NCBI RefSeq assembly: GCF_044324875.1
Contig: NZ_CP172185.1
Direction: 5' to 3' (one strand)
Source: Escherichia coli
GTDB lineage: Bacteria > Pseudomonadota > Gammaproteobacteria > Enterobacterales > Enterobacteriaceae
DNA length: 64,000 bases
The position numbers were made by a program, and so were the translations under genes. Within the stretch, counting starts at the first letter, position 1. The number at the start of each line of letters is the position of its first letter. The notes below the pieces were generated by a model. That model was not told the DNA's origin, made no database searches, and saw only the letters and a program-made list of their open reading frames with translations. Below are positions 4,307-48,166 of the stretch, one piece after another.

Positions 4307-6357
4307 TGAGTGCGCTCAACTCCCTGCCATTACCGGTGGTCAGGCTGCTGGCGTTCTTTCATGAAGAGTTAAGCGAGCGGCGGCCAGGTCGTGTGCCGCA
4401 GACCGTGCAACTCTGGGTAGGCTGCCTGCTGGTGATTCTGATCTCGATGACTTTTGAGATCCCTTTTGTGGCGTTATCACTGGCAGTGCTGTTTTACGGT
4501 ATTCAGTCGAACGCGTTTTACACCAAATTTGTGGCGATCTTGTTTGTGGTCGCCACGATGCTGGAAATCGCCAGCCTGTTTTTGATCTACAAATGGTCAT
4601 ATGGCGAACCGTTGATCCGATTGATCATTGCCGGACCGATCCTGATGGGCTGTATGTTTTTGATGCGCACCCATCGGTTGGGGCTGGTCTTTTTCGCCGT
4701 CGCCATTGTCGCTATTTACGGGCAAACCTTCCCCGCCATGCTCGACTATCCGGAAGTGGTCGTGCGCTTAACCCTGTGGTGTATCGTTGTTGGCCTCTAT
4801 CCAACCTTGCTGATGACGTTAATCGGCGTGCTGTGGTTTCCCAGCCGCGCCATTACGCAAATGCATCAAGCGCTTAATGATCGGCTTGATGATGCCATTA
4901 GTCACCTGACGGACAGCCTCGCACCGCTACCCGAAACGCGGATTGAAAGAGAGGCGCTGGCGCTGCAAAAACTCAATGTCTTTTGCCTCGCGGACGATGC
5001 CAACTGGCGAACTCAGAGCGCATGGTGGCAAAGCTGCGTGGCAACGGTAACCTACATTTACTCGACGCTGAATCGCTACGATCCCACCTCTTTTGCTGAT
5101 TCTCAGGCAATTATTGAATTTCGGCAAAAATTAGCCACAGAAATCAACAAACTGCAGCATGCCATTGCCGAAGGTCAGTGCTGGCAAAGCGACTGGCGGA
5201 TCAGTGAAAGTGAAGCGATGGCGGCACGGGAATGTAACCTGGAGAATATCTGCCAGACATTGTTGCAACTGGGTCAGATGGACCCGAATACGCCGCCAAC
5301 GCCCGCCACCAAACCGCCATCAATGGTCGCCGACGCTTTTACCAATCCAGACTATATGCGCTACGCGGTAAAAACGCTGCTCGCCTGTTTGATCTGTTAC
5401 ACCTTCTACAGCGGCGTGGACTGGGAAGGCATTCACACCTGTATGCTGACCTGCGTGATCGTCGCTAACCCGAATGTTGGTTCGTCGTATCAGAAAATGG
5501 CGCTGCGTTTTGGCGGTGCCTTCTGCGGTGCAATTCTGGCGCTGTTATTCACGCTACTGGTCATGCCCTGGCTGGACAATATTGTCGAATTGCTGTTTGT
5601 GCTGGCACCGATTTTCCTGTTGGGCGCATGGATTGCCACCAGCTCTGAACGCTCTTCTTATATCGGCACACAGATGGTGGTTACCTTCGCGCTCGCCACG
5701 CTCGAAAATGTTTTTGGCCCGGTGTACGACCTGGTGGAAATTCGCGATCGCGCCCTGGGTATCATCATTGGTACCGTGGTGTCTGCGGTGATTTACACCT
5801 TTGTCTGGCCTGAAAGTGAAGCGCGCACACTGCCGCAAAAACTGGCTGGCGCGCTGGGTATGTTGAGTAAAGTAATGCGGATCCCACGCCAGCAGGAAGT
5901 CACGGCTCTGCGCACTTATCTGCAAATTCGTATAGGTCTGCATGCGGCGTTTAATGCCTGTGAAGAGATGTGCCAACGCGTGGCGCTGGAGCGTCAACTG
6001 GACAGCGAAGAACGCGCTTTACTGATTGAACGTTCGCAAACGGTTATTCGTCAGGGCCGCGATATTCTTCACGCCTGGGATGCAACCTGGAACTCGGCGC
6101 AAGCGCTGGATAACGCACTACAGCCGGACAGAGCAAATCAGTTTGCCGACGCACTGGAGAAATACGCCGCCGGTCTGGCAACCGCACTCAGCCGTTCTCC
6201 TCAAATAACGCTTGAAGAAACACCCGCCTCGCAGGCCATCCTGCCGACCTTATTAAAACAGGAGCAACACGTCTGCCAGCTTTTCGCCCGCTTGCCAGAC
6301 TGGACAGCCCCGGCATTAACGCCCGCCACGGAACAGGTACAAGGAGCCATGCAATGA
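4306..6357 (+). CDS. mdtO: Multidrug efflux inner-membrane component
   Basis: 683-aa polytopic membrane protein; overlaps mdtN stop and mdtP start (translational coupling). Confidence 0.9.
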   Translation: MSALNSLPLPVVRLLAFFHEELSERRPGRVPQTVQLWVGCLLVILISMTFEIPFVALSLAVLFYGIQSNAFYTKFVAILFVVATMLEIASLFLIYKWSYGEPLIRLIIAGPILMGCMFLMRTHRLGLVFFAVAIVAIYGQTFPAMLDYPEVVVRLTLWCIVVGLYPTLLMTLIGVLWFPSRAITQMHQALNDRLDDAISHLTDSLAPLPETRIEREALALQKLNVFCLADDANWRTQSAWWQSCVATVTYIYSTLNRYDPTSFADSQAIIEFRQKLATEINKLQHAIAEGQCWQSDWRISESEAMAARECNLENICQTLLQLGQMDPNTPPTPATKPPSMVADAFTNPDYMRYAVKTLLACLICYTFYSGVDWEGIHTCMLTCVIVANPNVGSSYQKMALRFGGAFCGAILALLFTLLVMPWLDNIVELLFVLAPIFLLGAWIATSSERSSYIGTQMVVTFALATLENVFGPVYDLVEIRDRALGIIIGTVVSAVIYTFVWPESEARTLPQKLAGALGMLSKVMRIPRQQEVTALRTYLQIRIGLHAAFNACEEMCQRVALERQLDSEERALLIERSQTVIRQGRDILHAWDATWNSAQALDNALQPDRANQFADALEKYAAGLATALSRSPQITLEETPASQAILPTLLKQEQHVCQLFARLPDWTAPALTPATEQVQGAMQ

Positions 6358-7820
6358 TCAATCGTCAACTTTCACGCCTGCTGTTGTGCAGCATTCTCGG
6401 CAGCACGACGCTGATTTCCGGCTGTGCCCTGGTACGTAAGGATTCTGCACCTCATCAACAGCTCAAACCGGAACAAATCAAACTGGCCGATGATATTCAT
6501 CTTGCCAGCTCCGGCTGGCCGCAGGCGCAGTGGTGGAAACAACTCAATGACCCGCAGCTGGATGCGCTGATCCAACGGACGCTAAGTGGTTCACACACCC
6601 TCGCCGAAGCGAAACTGCGGGAAGAAAAAGCGCAGTCCCAGGCCGATTTGTTAGATGCCGGTTCACAATTACAGGTCGCAGCGTTAGGGATGCTCAACCG
6701 CCAACTTGTCTCGGCGAACGGCTTTTTAAGCCCTTATGCGATGGATGCGCCAGCACTGGGTATGGACGGGCCGTACTATACGGAAGCCACAGTAGGTTTG
6801 TTTGCCGGACTGGATCTCGATTTGTGGGGTGTGCATCGCTCAGCGGTTGCCGCTGCCATTGGCGCGCATAATGCCGCGCTGGCAGAAACCGCAGCAGTAG
6901 AGCTATCGCTGACCACGGGCGTAGCGCAGCTTTATTACAGTATGCAGGCCAGCTATCAGATGCTCGATCTGTTAGAACAAACACGCGATGTGATTGATTA
7001 CGCGGTAAAAGCGCACCAGAGTAAAGTGGCGCACGGTCTGGAAGCGCAAGTGCCTTTCCACGGCGCGCGGGCACAGATTCTGGCGGTCGATAAACAAATT
7101 GCTGCCGTTAAAGGGCAAATCACCGAAACGCGAGAATCTCTGCGTGCATTGATTGGCGCAGGAGCCAGCGATATGCCGGAGATCAGACCGGTGGCATTAC
7201 CGCAAGTCCAGACCGGCATTCCGGCGACACTCTCTTATGAGTTGCTCGCCAGACGCCCGGATCTGCAAGCGATGCGCTGGTATGTTCAGGCGTCATTAGA
7301 TCAGGTGGATTCCGCGCGGGCGTTGTTCTACCCGAGCTTTGATATCAAAGCGTTTTTCGGCCTTGATGCCATCCACCTGGATACCTTATCCAAAAAAACC
7401 AGTCGCCAGTTCAACTTTATCCCGGGTCTGAAATTGCCGCTGTTTGACGGTGGACGGTTGAATGCCAATCTCGAAGGCACTCGCGCCGCCAGCAACATGA
7501 TGATTGAACGTTACAACCAGTCAGTACTGAACGCGGTGCGCGACGTTGCCGTCAACGGCACGCGTCTGCAAACGCTTAACGACGAGCGAGAGATGCAGGC
7601 TGAACGCGTGGAAGCAACGCGCTTCACCCAGCGCGCTGCCGAGGCCGCCTATCAACGCGGCTTAACCAGCCGCTTACAGGCCACCGAAGCCCGGTTGCCA
7701 GTGCTTGCCGAGGAGATGTCATTACTGATGCTGGACAGCCGCCGGGTGATCCAAAGCATTCAGTTGATGAAATCGCTGGGCGGCGGGTATCAGGCAAGTC
7801 CCGTCGTCGAGAAAAAATAA
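6354..7820 (+). CDS. mdtP: Outer-membrane efflux lipoprotein (OMF family)
   Basis: 488-aa ORF; lipoprotein signal (LISGCAL); 4-nt overlap with mdtO. Confidence 0.9.
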   Translation: MINRQLSRLLLCSILGSTTLISGCALVRKDSAPHQQLKPEQIKLADDIHLASSGWPQAQWWKQLNDPQLDALIQRTLSGSHTLAEAKLREEKAQSQADLLDAGSQLQVAALGMLNRQLVSANGFLSPYAMDAPALGMDGPYYTEATVGLFAGLDLDLWGVHRSAVAAAIGAHNAALAETAAVELSLTTGVAQLYYSMQASYQMLDLLEQTRDVIDYAVKAHQSKVAHGLEAQVPFHGARAQILAVDKQIAAVKGQITETRESLRALIGAGASDMPEIRPVALPQVQTGIPATLSYELLARRPDLQAMRWYVQASLDQVDSARALFYPSFDIKAFFGLDAIHLDTLSKKTSRQFNFIPGLKLPLFDGGRLNANLEGTRAASNMMIERYNQSVLNAVRDVAVNGTRLQTLNDEREMQAERVEATRFTQRAAEAAYQRGLTSRLQATEARLPVLAEEMSLLMLDSRRVIQSIQLMKSLGGGYQASPVVEKK

Positions 7821-7861
7821 AATGTCTGCCGCGTGATGGCTGTCACGCGGTATTTCGTTTC

Positions 7862-7905
7862 GTCACGTCAAAACTGACGACAGCCTGTTTTTCGTCAGAG
7901 TTTTG
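7862..7905. promoter_or_regulatory. Inverted-repeat upstream activating sequence, candidate FhlA site for fdhF
   Basis: Inverted repeats (gtcacgtcaaaactgacgac ... tcgtcagagttttg) about 60-100 bp upstream of the sigma54 element. Confidence 0.35.
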
Positions 7906-7950
7906 AATAAATAGTGCCCGTAATATCAGGGAATGACCCCAAATAAAATG

Positions 7951-7966
7951 TGGCATAAAAGATGCA
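7951..7966 (+). promoter_or_regulatory. Sigma54 (-24/-12) promoter of fdhF
   Basis: TGGCATaaaagaTGCA matches the GG-N10-GC sigma54 consensus, about 50 bp upstream of the fdhF start. Confidence 0.6.
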
Positions 7967-8017
7967 TACTGTAGTCGAGAGCGCGTATGCGTGATTTGAT
8001 TAACTGGAGCGAGACCG

Positions 8018-10165
8018 ATGAAAAAAGTCGTCACGGTTTGCCCCTATTGCGCATCAGGTTGCAAAATCAACCTGGTCGTCGATAACGGCAAAATCGTCCG
8101 GGCGGAGGCAGCGCAGGGGAAAACCAACCAGGGTACCCTGTGTCTGAAGGGTTATTATGGCTGGGATTTCATTAACGATACCCAGATCCTGACCCCGCGC
8201 CTGAAAACCCCCATGATCCGTCGCCAGCGTGGCGGCAAACTCGAACCTGTTTCCTGGGATGAGGCACTGAATTACGTTGCCGAGCGCCTGAGCGCCATCA
8301 AAGAGAAGTACGGTCCGGATGCCATCCAGACGACCGGCTCCTCGCGTGGTACGGGTAACGAAACCAACTATGTAATGCAAAAATTTGCGCGCGCCGTTAT
8401 TGGTACCAATAACGTTGACTGCTGCGCTCGTGTCTGACACGGCCCATCGGTTGCAGGTCTGCACCAATCGGTCGGTAATGGCGCAATGAGCAATGCTATT
8501 AACGAAATTGATAATACCGATTTAGTGTTCGTTTTCGGGTACAACCCGGCGGATTCCCACCCAATCGTGGCGAATCACGTAATTAACGCTAAACGTAACG
8601 GGGCGAAAATTATCGTCTGCGATCCGCGCAAAATTGAAACCGCGCGCATTGCGGACATGCACATTGCACTGAAAAACGGCTCGAACATCGCGCTGTTGAA
8701 TGCGATGGGCCATGTCATTATTGAAGAAAATCTGTACGACAAAGCGTTCGTCGCTTCCCGCACAGAAGGCTTTGAAGAGTATCGTAAAATCGTTGAAGGC
8801 TACACGCCGGAGTCGGTTGAAGATATCACCGGCGTCAGCGCCAGTGAGATTCGTCAGGCGGCGCGGATGTATGCCCAGGCGAAAAGCGCCGCCATCCTGT
8901 GGGGCATGGGTGTAACCCAGTTCTACCAGGGCGTGGAAACCGTGCGTTCTCTGACCAGCCTCGCGATGCTGACTGGTAACCTCGGTAAGCCGCATGCGGG
9001 TGTAAACCCGGTTCGTGGTCAGAACAACGTGCAGGGTGCCTGCGATATGGGCGCGCTGCCGGATACGTATCCGGGATACCAGTACGTGAAAGATCCGGCT
9101 AACCGCGAGAAATTCGCCAAAGCCTGGGGCGTGGAAAGCCTGCCAGCGCATACCGGCTATCGCATCAGCGAGCTGCCGCACCGCGCAGCGCATGGCGAAG
9201 TGCGTGCCGCGTACATTATGGGCGAAGATCCGCTGCAAACTGACGCGGAGCTGTCGGCAGTACGTAAAGCCTTTGAAGATCTGGAACTGGTTATCGTTCA
9301 GGACATCTTTATGACCAAAACCGCGTCGGCGGCGGATGTTATTTTACCGTCAACGTCGTGGGGCGAGCATGAAGGCGTGTTTACTGCGGCTGACCGTGGT
9401 TTCCAGCGTTTCTTCAAAGCAGTTGAACCGAAATGGGATCTGAAAACGGACTGGCAAATCATCAGTGAAATTGCCACTCGTATGGGTTATCCGATGCACT
9501 ACAACAACACCCAGGAGATCTGGGATGAGTTGCGTCATCTGTGCCCGGATTTCTACGGTGCGACTTACGAAAAAATGGGCGAACTGGGCTTCATTCAGTG
9601 GCCTTGCCGCGATACTTCAGATGCCGATCAGGGGACTTCTTATCTGTTTAAAGAGAAGTTTGATACCCCGAACGGTCTGGCGCAGTTCTTCACCTGCGAC
9701 TGGGTAGCGCCAATCGACAAACTCACCGACGAGTATCCGATGGTACTGTCAACGGTGCGTGAAGTTGGTCACTACTCTTGCCGTTCGATGACCGGTAACT
9801 GTGCGGCACTGGCGGCGCTGGCTGATGAACCTGGCTACGCACAAATCAATACCGAAGACGCCAAACGTCTGGGTATTGAAGATGAGGCATTGGTTTGGGT
9901 GCACTCGCGTAAAGGCAAAATTATCACCCGTGCGCAGGTCAGCGATCGTCCGAACAAAGGGGCGATTTACATGACCTACCAGTGGTGGATTGGTGCCTGT
10001 AACGAGCTGGTTACCGAAAACTTAAGCCCGATTACGAAAACGCCGGAATACAAATACTGCGCCGTGCGCGTCGAGCCGATCGCCGATCAGCGCGCCGCCG
10101 AGCAGTACGTGATTGACGAGTACAACAAGTTGAAAACTCGCCTGCGCGAAGCGGCACTGGCGTAA
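8018..10165 (+). CDS. fdhF: Formate dehydrogenase H, selenocysteine-containing molybdoenzyme; UGA at 8435-8437 decoded as Sec
   Basis: ORFs 8018..8437 and 8486..10165 are in the same frame, separated only by an in-frame TGA; N-terminal Fe-S cysteine cluster (CPYCASGCK...CLKG); the joined product is the right length for FdhF. Confidence 0.92.
8438..8480 (+). other. SECIS stem-loop directing selenocysteine insertion at the fdhF UGA
   Basis: Sequence immediately 3' of the UGA (cacggcccatcggttgcaggtctgcaccaatcggtcggtaatggc) can form the hairpin expected for the fdhF SECIS. Confidence 0.75.
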
Positions 10166-48106: not shown

Positions 48107-48149
48107 GATGCTCTCCCAAAGATGAAATCTCTTGCTGGCATTACAAGAA

Positions 48150-48166
48150 TCATGCCAAAAATAATC
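48150..48166 (-). promoter_or_regulatory. Candidate sigma54 promoter of pspG
   Basis: Reverse strand reads TGGCATgattcTTGTAA (GG-N10-TG, -24/-12-like), about 45 nt upstream of the pspG start. Confidence 0.45.

Follow-up and report, generated by a model that had tools for sequence, protein, structure and literature searches.

The spacer between mdtP and fdhF in this Escherichia coli DNA is, as we are almost certain, the native sigma-54/FhlA regulatory region of E. coli fdhF, the gene for formate dehydrogenase H. This sigma-54/FhlA promoter is already known, and the copy described here is one base off that of K-12. Our reading is built on the sequence elements of the region, on their conservation and fixed spacing, and on the fact that they recur at other promoters that depend on FhlA. 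It is taken from the literature that sigma-54 binds exactly this motif and that fdhF expression depends on sigma-54, FhlA and formate. In the following text, the window means the whole stretch of DNA that was analysed (64 kb). The features of the region are collected in Table 1.

The preliminary description had named fdhF as the downstream gene, and this assignment is correct. PGAP names the gene fdhF in identical E. coli genomes, the product translated from 8018 begins with MKKVVTVCPYCASGC, the frame contains an in-frame TGA, and Rfam detects a SECIS_2 element that spans this TGA. A 281-nt query spanning the spacer showed 100% identity to some E. coli genomes. Of 5426 complete E. coli genomes, 5419 contain the spacer, and in every case it separates mdtP from fdhF. 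In this genome search, four of the 5420 spacer matches were on plasmid-labelled records, and one genome possessed two copies; the 90-95% identity band contained only two of the 5420 records. When an Rfam scan was performed at a permissive threshold (E up to 1), no known RNA element was found in the spacer and only the fdhF SECIS was matched. Therefore, the idea of a riboswitch or sRNA in the spacer was rejected. We also considered a 13-nt imperfect inverted repeat (7957-7969 / 7985-7997), which extends across the promoter and leader. Its formation in RNA was judged unlikely because the left arm is located upstream of the predicted transcription start.

Table 1. Coordinates of the features in and around the mdtP/fdhF spacer (window numbering; negative numbers are relative to the predicted transcription start)
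Feature	Position	Strand	Description
mdtP	6354-7820	+	488-codon ORF; last base of the stop codon at 7820; called mdtP in the annotation of identical genomes
mdtP/fdhF intergenic spacer	7821-8017		exactly the range treated in the preliminary description; between two + strand genes
Intrinsic-terminator-like hairpin of the mdtNOP transcript	7827-7862	+	arms CCGCGTGA (7829-7836) and TCACGCGG (7843-7850); T-rich tail TATTTCGTTTCG
Distal conserved GTCAC, candidate extra FhlA half-site	7842-7846		in the right arm of the hairpin; about -135 to -131; putative function
UAS site 1	7858-7880		TTTCGTCA half-site (7858-7865) overlapping the palindrome; centre about -105
Palindrome ACGTCAAAACTGACGA	7865-7880		ACGTCA-AAAC-TGACGA; core of site 1
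UAS site 2	7886-7907		CTGTTTTTCGTCAG then AGTTTTGAA; TCGTCA-N4-TTTGAA at 7892-7907 (-85 to -70); conserved across genera
Conserved spacer block	7919-7930 and 7937-7940		CGTAATATCAGG and CCCC (CCaC in other genera); high information content in 19 genera
19-genus conserved block	7859-7880		TTCGaCACGTCAAat.TGACGA
19-genus conserved block	7886-7899		CTGtttTTCGTCAG
19-genus conserved block	7901-7906		TTTtGa
19-genus conserved block	7919-7930		CGTAataTCaGg
19-genus conserved block	7937-7940		CCaC
19-genus conserved block	7951-7969		TGGCATAgAAgaTGCATA
Sigma-54 -24/-12 element TGGCATAAAAGATGCA	7951-7966	+	GG 7952-7953; GC 7964-7965; correct GG-N10-GC spacing
Predicted transcription start	7977	+	41 nt before the ATG; reproduces the distance tabulated in PMC4591121
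RBS TGGAG and fdhF start codon ATG	8005-8009 and 8018-8020	+	direct sequence reading
fdhF CDS	8018-10165	+	715 codons; ORFs 8018-8437 and 8486-10165 share one frame
In-frame UGA (selenocysteine) of fdhF	8435-8437		TGA read through
SECIS_2 element in fdhF	8430-8484		Rfam, 87.1 bits (gathering score, 70)

A match to the -24/-12 consensus at 7951-7966 had been reported from inspection of the sequence, and we confirmed its coordinates, its + strand orientation and its GG-N10-GC spacing. The element is intergenic and on the sense strand, and its end is 51 nt before the fdhF ATG. As compared with the consensus TGGCAC-N5-TTGCW, TGGCATAAAAGATGCA has two mismatches, both at non-critical positions. Published data exist for this very sequence. 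In K-12, OS41, a peak found by sigma-54 ChIP-seq, has the motif GTGGCATAAAAGATGCA, fdhF as the downstream gene and a mark as experimentally confirmed in EcoCyc (PMC4591121 Table 1). This 17-mer is identical to 7950-7966 of the window and contains TGGCATAAAAGATGCA. The same work places the predicted start of the OS41 promoter 41 nt from fdhF (PMC4591121). Using its rule that the start is at the motif centre + 19, and with the centre at 7958, we infer the exact start site in this strain to be 7977. Furthermore, a genomic SELEX peak of RpoN holoenzyme lies in the fdhF/mdtP spacer (PMC8743547). In Salmonella LT2, the corresponding sequence TGGCATAAAACATGCATA was enriched in sigma-54 ChIP-chip, fdhF was 29-fold sigma-54 dependent by microarray, and FhlA was named as the activator (PMC3844500). 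For K-12, reviews report that formate-induced transcription is lost by mutation of the GG or in an rpoN mutant. Thus, the reading of the element as a sigma-54 promoter is supported by its position, by published sigma-54 binding and by its conservation upstream of fdhF.

The conservation was examined with a scan that was anchored in the fdhF coding sequence and not in the promoter, because circularity was to be avoided. A degenerate pattern for CPYCASGCKIN inside fdhF was searched in species-representative genomes; 120 loci were returned, and the RpoN matrix was scored over the 300 nt before each fdhF-like start codon. As a result, TGGCAY-N5-(A/C)TGCAT was found in most Enterobacterales orthologues, where it scored 11-17 bits and was located no more than 163 nt, and usually 36-71 nt, before the ATG. 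About 40 enterobacterial genera have it upstream of fdhF, including Escherichia, Salmonella, Citrobacter, Klebsiella, Raoultella, Enterobacter, Kluyvera, Buttiauxella, Cedecea, Hafnia, Edwardsiella, Providencia, Morganella and Arsenophonus. No comparable motif was observed in the 300 nt upstream of the homologues of Pasteurellaceae, Budvicia/Pragia, Gilliamella, Oxalobacter and others. Leclercia sp. 29361 possesses two fdhF-like genes (L065 and L066), and only L066 has the -24/-12 element and the enhancer box (described below) at the usual distance.

Inverted repeats about 60-100 bp upstream of the promoter had been proposed as a site for the enhancer-binding protein FhlA. Such repeats are present 60-100 nt upstream of TGGCATAAAAGATGCA: TCGTCA/TGACGA at 7860-7880, CTGACGA/TCGTCAG at 7874-7898 and TCAAAACT/AGTTTTGA at 7868-7906. 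In 7821-7950, we counted 11 perfect inverted 6-mer pairs, and 1.6 were expected from dinucleotide shuffles; 11 or more pairs were reached by only 0.1% of the shuffles (1/1000). The motif spacing is correct and the inverted repeats are enriched, and therefore the observation in the preliminary description is confirmed. Its interpretation as an FhlA site is supported, since the palindrome is conserved and recurs at FhlA-dependent promoters; as a refinement, the leftmost repeat is the mdtP terminator. The two TTTCGTCA half-sites (7858-7865 and 7890-7897) form a direct repeat 32 nt apart and start at -119 and -87. Together with the palindrome, they are placed 54-93 nt before TGGCA. The deletion work of Birkmann and Bock (1989) reportedly placed the enhancer near -110.

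Comparison of the orthologues gives a general form of this enhancer box. A perfect WCGWCA-N4-TGWCGA precedes TGGCA at constrained distances in 60 of 67 fdhF orthologue upstream regions, a frequency that describes the box and is not an independent test, because the box was defined from those sequences. When the regions were aligned on TGGCA, distant genera were found to carry TCGACA-N4-TGTCGA or TCGACA-N4-TGACGA as the box. Two checks of the box are independent, namely that it is unique in the window and that it recurs at hydN and hyfA. In the 64-kb window, ACGTCAAAACTGACGA is the sole perfect WCGWCA-N4-TGWCGA; with up to one mismatch, there are three matches versus about one in shuffles. The TTTCGWCA half-site is not enriched window-wide (7 found versus 5.1 expected), and two of the seven are in the enhancer, 32 nt apart. 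In K-12, hydN has a perfect box, TCGACACTAGTGACGA, about 70 nt upstream of its -24 element, and hyfA has a one-mismatch box, GCGACACGGGTGTCGA, about 100 nt upstream of its own -24 element. In the K-12 hycA-hypA spacer, TTTCG(T/A)C half-sites are clustered. In an ungapped comparison of the 19 genera that share an 86-nt box-to-TGGCA spacing, the palindrome box had the top column conservation, and conservation was low outside the blocks given in Table 1. The TCGTCA of site 2 is 59 nt before TGGCA in most Enterobacteriaceae, and Hafnia has a similar site 2, TCGTCA-N4-TTTGAT.

We then compared the region with known systems. The sigma-54/FhlA-dependent PfdhF of E. coli K-12 is at the same mdtP-fdhF locus, and its -24/-12 element, enhancer repeats, 5' leader and start codon are identical. 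The spacer of K-12 MG1655 differs by one base: position 7942 is A in the window and C in K-12, where this C makes a CCACAT/ATGTGG inverted repeat complete next to the -24 element. Among the sampled sequences, E. albertii, E. whittamii and other E. coli also have an A at the equivalent position. The fdhF gene of Salmonella enterica (STM4285) is an orthologue with the promoter TGGCATAAAACATGCATA, an identical palindrome ACGTCAAAACTGACGA and likewise an 86-nt spacing between box and promoter; it differs in that a G is replaced by C in the promoter spacer and in that the sequence upstream of the enhancer is divergent. Within E. coli, the hydN-hypF, hyfA, hycA and hypA promoters likewise combine a -24/-12 element with the box or with TTTCG(T/A)C half-sites 70-100 nt upstream, although they differ in the number, orientation and spacing of the half-sites. 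In the divergent spacer shared by hyc/hyp, several half-sites take the place of one clean palindrome.

Expression inducible by formate had been expected from these elements, and the control of fdhF by FhlA and formate is indeed established in the literature (PMC11841067, PMC11291172, PMC7658346). One alternative is that the enhancer serves mainly another enhancer-binding protein, such as the FhlA paralogue HyfR, or that an extra factor (ModE or a DNA-bending protein) acts at 7919-7940. We consider this unlikely. HyfR activates hyf, and a near-identical box is located upstream of hyfA, with which the hyf operon begins; HyfR is encoded in the same operon. However, the documented activator of fdhF is FhlA, and hyc-type systems are present in many of the box-carrying genera. 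In respect of an auxiliary factor, ModE is reported to be needed alongside FhlA and formate for maximal fdhF expression (PMC3149613), and a conserved block exists between the enhancer and the promoter. However, when the block at 7919-7940 was inspected by eye for the IHF and ModE consensus sequences, nothing convincing was recognised.

The box-to-TGGCA distances fall into four classes, 74-78, 86-89, 107-112 and 119-121 nt, and a period scan of the spacing peaked at 11.0 bp (R = 0.75; the classes share ancestry). These steps of about 11 bp may reflect a face-of-helix constraint. Because the spacing classes are not phylogenetically independent, this helical phasing is only suggestive. E. coli clone D i2 (NC_017651) contains a 10-bp tandem duplication, TTTTGAATAA, equivalent to about 7901-7910 of the window. 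The duplication lies between site 2 and the spacer block and adds approximately one helical turn to the enhancer-promoter distance. This natural duplication fits the picture of helical phasing.

The leftmost inverted repeat has a different nature. It begins 9 nt past the mdtP stop codon, and in a terminator scan the hairpin 7829-7850 was the only terminator-like match in the region. Its RNA fold has an energy of -19.6 kcal/mol (z = -3.8). On inspection by eye, Salmonella, Kluyvera and Pseudocitrobacter, which likewise have mdtP upstream, were seen to retain the hairpin with paired changes. Thus, the repeat at 7829-7850 is a terminator-like hairpin and not primarily an activator site. The DNA of its right arm may do double duty, because a GTCA located 21-24 nt upstream of the palindrome is kept in 17 of the 19 genera irrespective of the upstream gene. 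GTCACG occurs twice in the region, at 7842 and 7862, 20 nt apart. The GTCAC bases may act as RNA terminator and as conserved promoter-upstream DNA at the same time. That ModE or an auxiliary factor not yet described binds the block 7919-7940 and the distal GTCAC, or that GTCAC is a third FhlA half-site, is a tentative idea that we regard as rather doubtful.

It could be argued that none of the upstream inverted repeats is an activator site, and that they are only RNA structures (the mdtP terminator) or fortuitous repeats. The terminator-like nature of 7829-7850 agrees with this idea, as do the poor scores of the region with the published FhlA motifs. With the 13-site FhlA matrix (PMC7658346), the best local match was CGTCAAAACTGACG at 7866-7879 (8.0 bits). 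Because more than 25 higher chance matches are found elsewhere in the window, this matrix is too weak to discriminate. A 16-bp FhlA consensus, CATTTCGTACGAAATG, is attributed to Leonhartsberger et al. 2000 in PMC4987338. With up to three mismatches allowed, it has no match in the 64-kb window, and half of it, TTTCGT, is present only as the TTTCGTCA half-sites at 7858 and 7890. Nevertheless, the palindrome at 7865-7880 and the half-site at 7890-7897 are conserved in genera with a different upstream gene and hold a fixed distance to the -24 element, and the same box is located upstream of the hydN and hyfA sigma-54 promoters. Moreover, the palindrome has an A/T-rich 4-nt loop without a T-tract, unlike a terminator. 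An origin of all the repeats as RNA structures or by accident is thus highly improbable, and we infer that the palindrome and its half-sites include the bases touched by FhlA.

Finally, we asked whether the promoter motif exceeds chance. Scoring with a sigma-54 PWM had been suggested as a check. With the RpoN matrix of 186 sites, as printed in PMC7658346, TGGCATAAAAGATGCA scored 13.3 bits and ranked fourth of about 128,000 positions, but this is not above chance in the window: shuffles gave 3.2 +/- 2.1 sites scoring at least as high as TGGCATAAAAGATGCA per 64-kb window. A consensus search of the whole window with up to two mismatches gave 18 matches versus 27.5 expected. Thus, the motif score alone does not set TGGCATAAAAGATGCA above chance in the 64-kb window. 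Because window-wide enrichment is absent, the consensus and matrix scans cannot validate TGGCATAAAAGATGCA by themselves; it is credible because of its position, the published binding measurements and its conservation. By arithmetic from the matrix figures, we estimate about 0.005 chance matches for the sense strand of the 200 nt that precede fdhF. It is scarcely credible that TGGCAT-N5-ATGCA is a chance motif and that fdhF owes its transcription to read-through from mdtP or to a promoter of the sigma-70 type at another place in the spacer: about three matches of such quality are expected per 64 kb and the consensus search is not enriched, but a sigma-70 promoter scan over 7600-8200 found none, a strong terminator-like hairpin follows mdtP, sigma-54 binds the motif of K-12 both in vivo and in vitro, and conservation across about 40 genera is seen for the motif but not for the spacer around it.

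Two other high-scoring matches to the RpoN matrix should be mentioned. At 48142-48157 (- strand), TGGCATGATTCTTGTA scored 13.2 bits and is the ChIP-seq motif OS40 of the pspG promoter (PMC4591121). It is followed on the minus strand by an 80-aa PspG-like ORF downstream of dusA. Since TGGCATGATTCTTGTA is the pspG motif, the window therefore has a second genuine sigma-54 promoter. The best RpoN-matrix score of the window (15.3 bits) belongs to TGGCAGACGTGTTGCT at 6263-6278 (- strand), which is intragenic and antisense to mdtO. A search of the text of PMC4591121 for TGGCAGACGTGTTGCT and "mdtO" gave no mention. This sequence in mdtO probably matches by chance or represents an intragenic site of low occupancy.

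Based on these elements and on the published work, the following mechanism can be proposed for the sigma-54/FhlA regulatory region of fdhF. Sigma-54 RNA polymerase would sit on 7951-7966 as a closed complex, which would be unable to initiate alone. FhlA, the formate-sensing enhancer-binding AAA+ ATPase, would bind the UAS about 70-135 bp upstream of the start, and the core of this UAS would be the palindrome ACGTCA-N4-TGACGA (7865-7880) with the TTTCGTCA half-sites at 7858 and 7890. Formate-bound FhlA is then expected to reach the polymerase via DNA looping, and ATP hydrolysis would open the promoter, so that transcription would begin near 7977, 41 nt ahead of the ATG. The hairpin at 7829-7850 would end the upstream mdtNOP transcript.

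Since the late 1980s, the promoter of fdhF has served as a model for sigma-54/FhlA control, and our result has little weight as a discovery; the promoter is already used in formate biosensors (PMC6540204). The analysis has several by-products. A lone sigma-54 consensus match carries no statistical weight in a 64-kb window. Across genera, the enhancer can be described as WCGWCA-N4-TGWCGA together with TTTCGTCA half-sites, placed at a distance that seems to be helically phased, and a conserved spacer block is flagged between this enhancer and the promoter. If the distal GTCAC were a third FhlA half-site, the DNA of the upstream terminator would be coupled to enhancer function.
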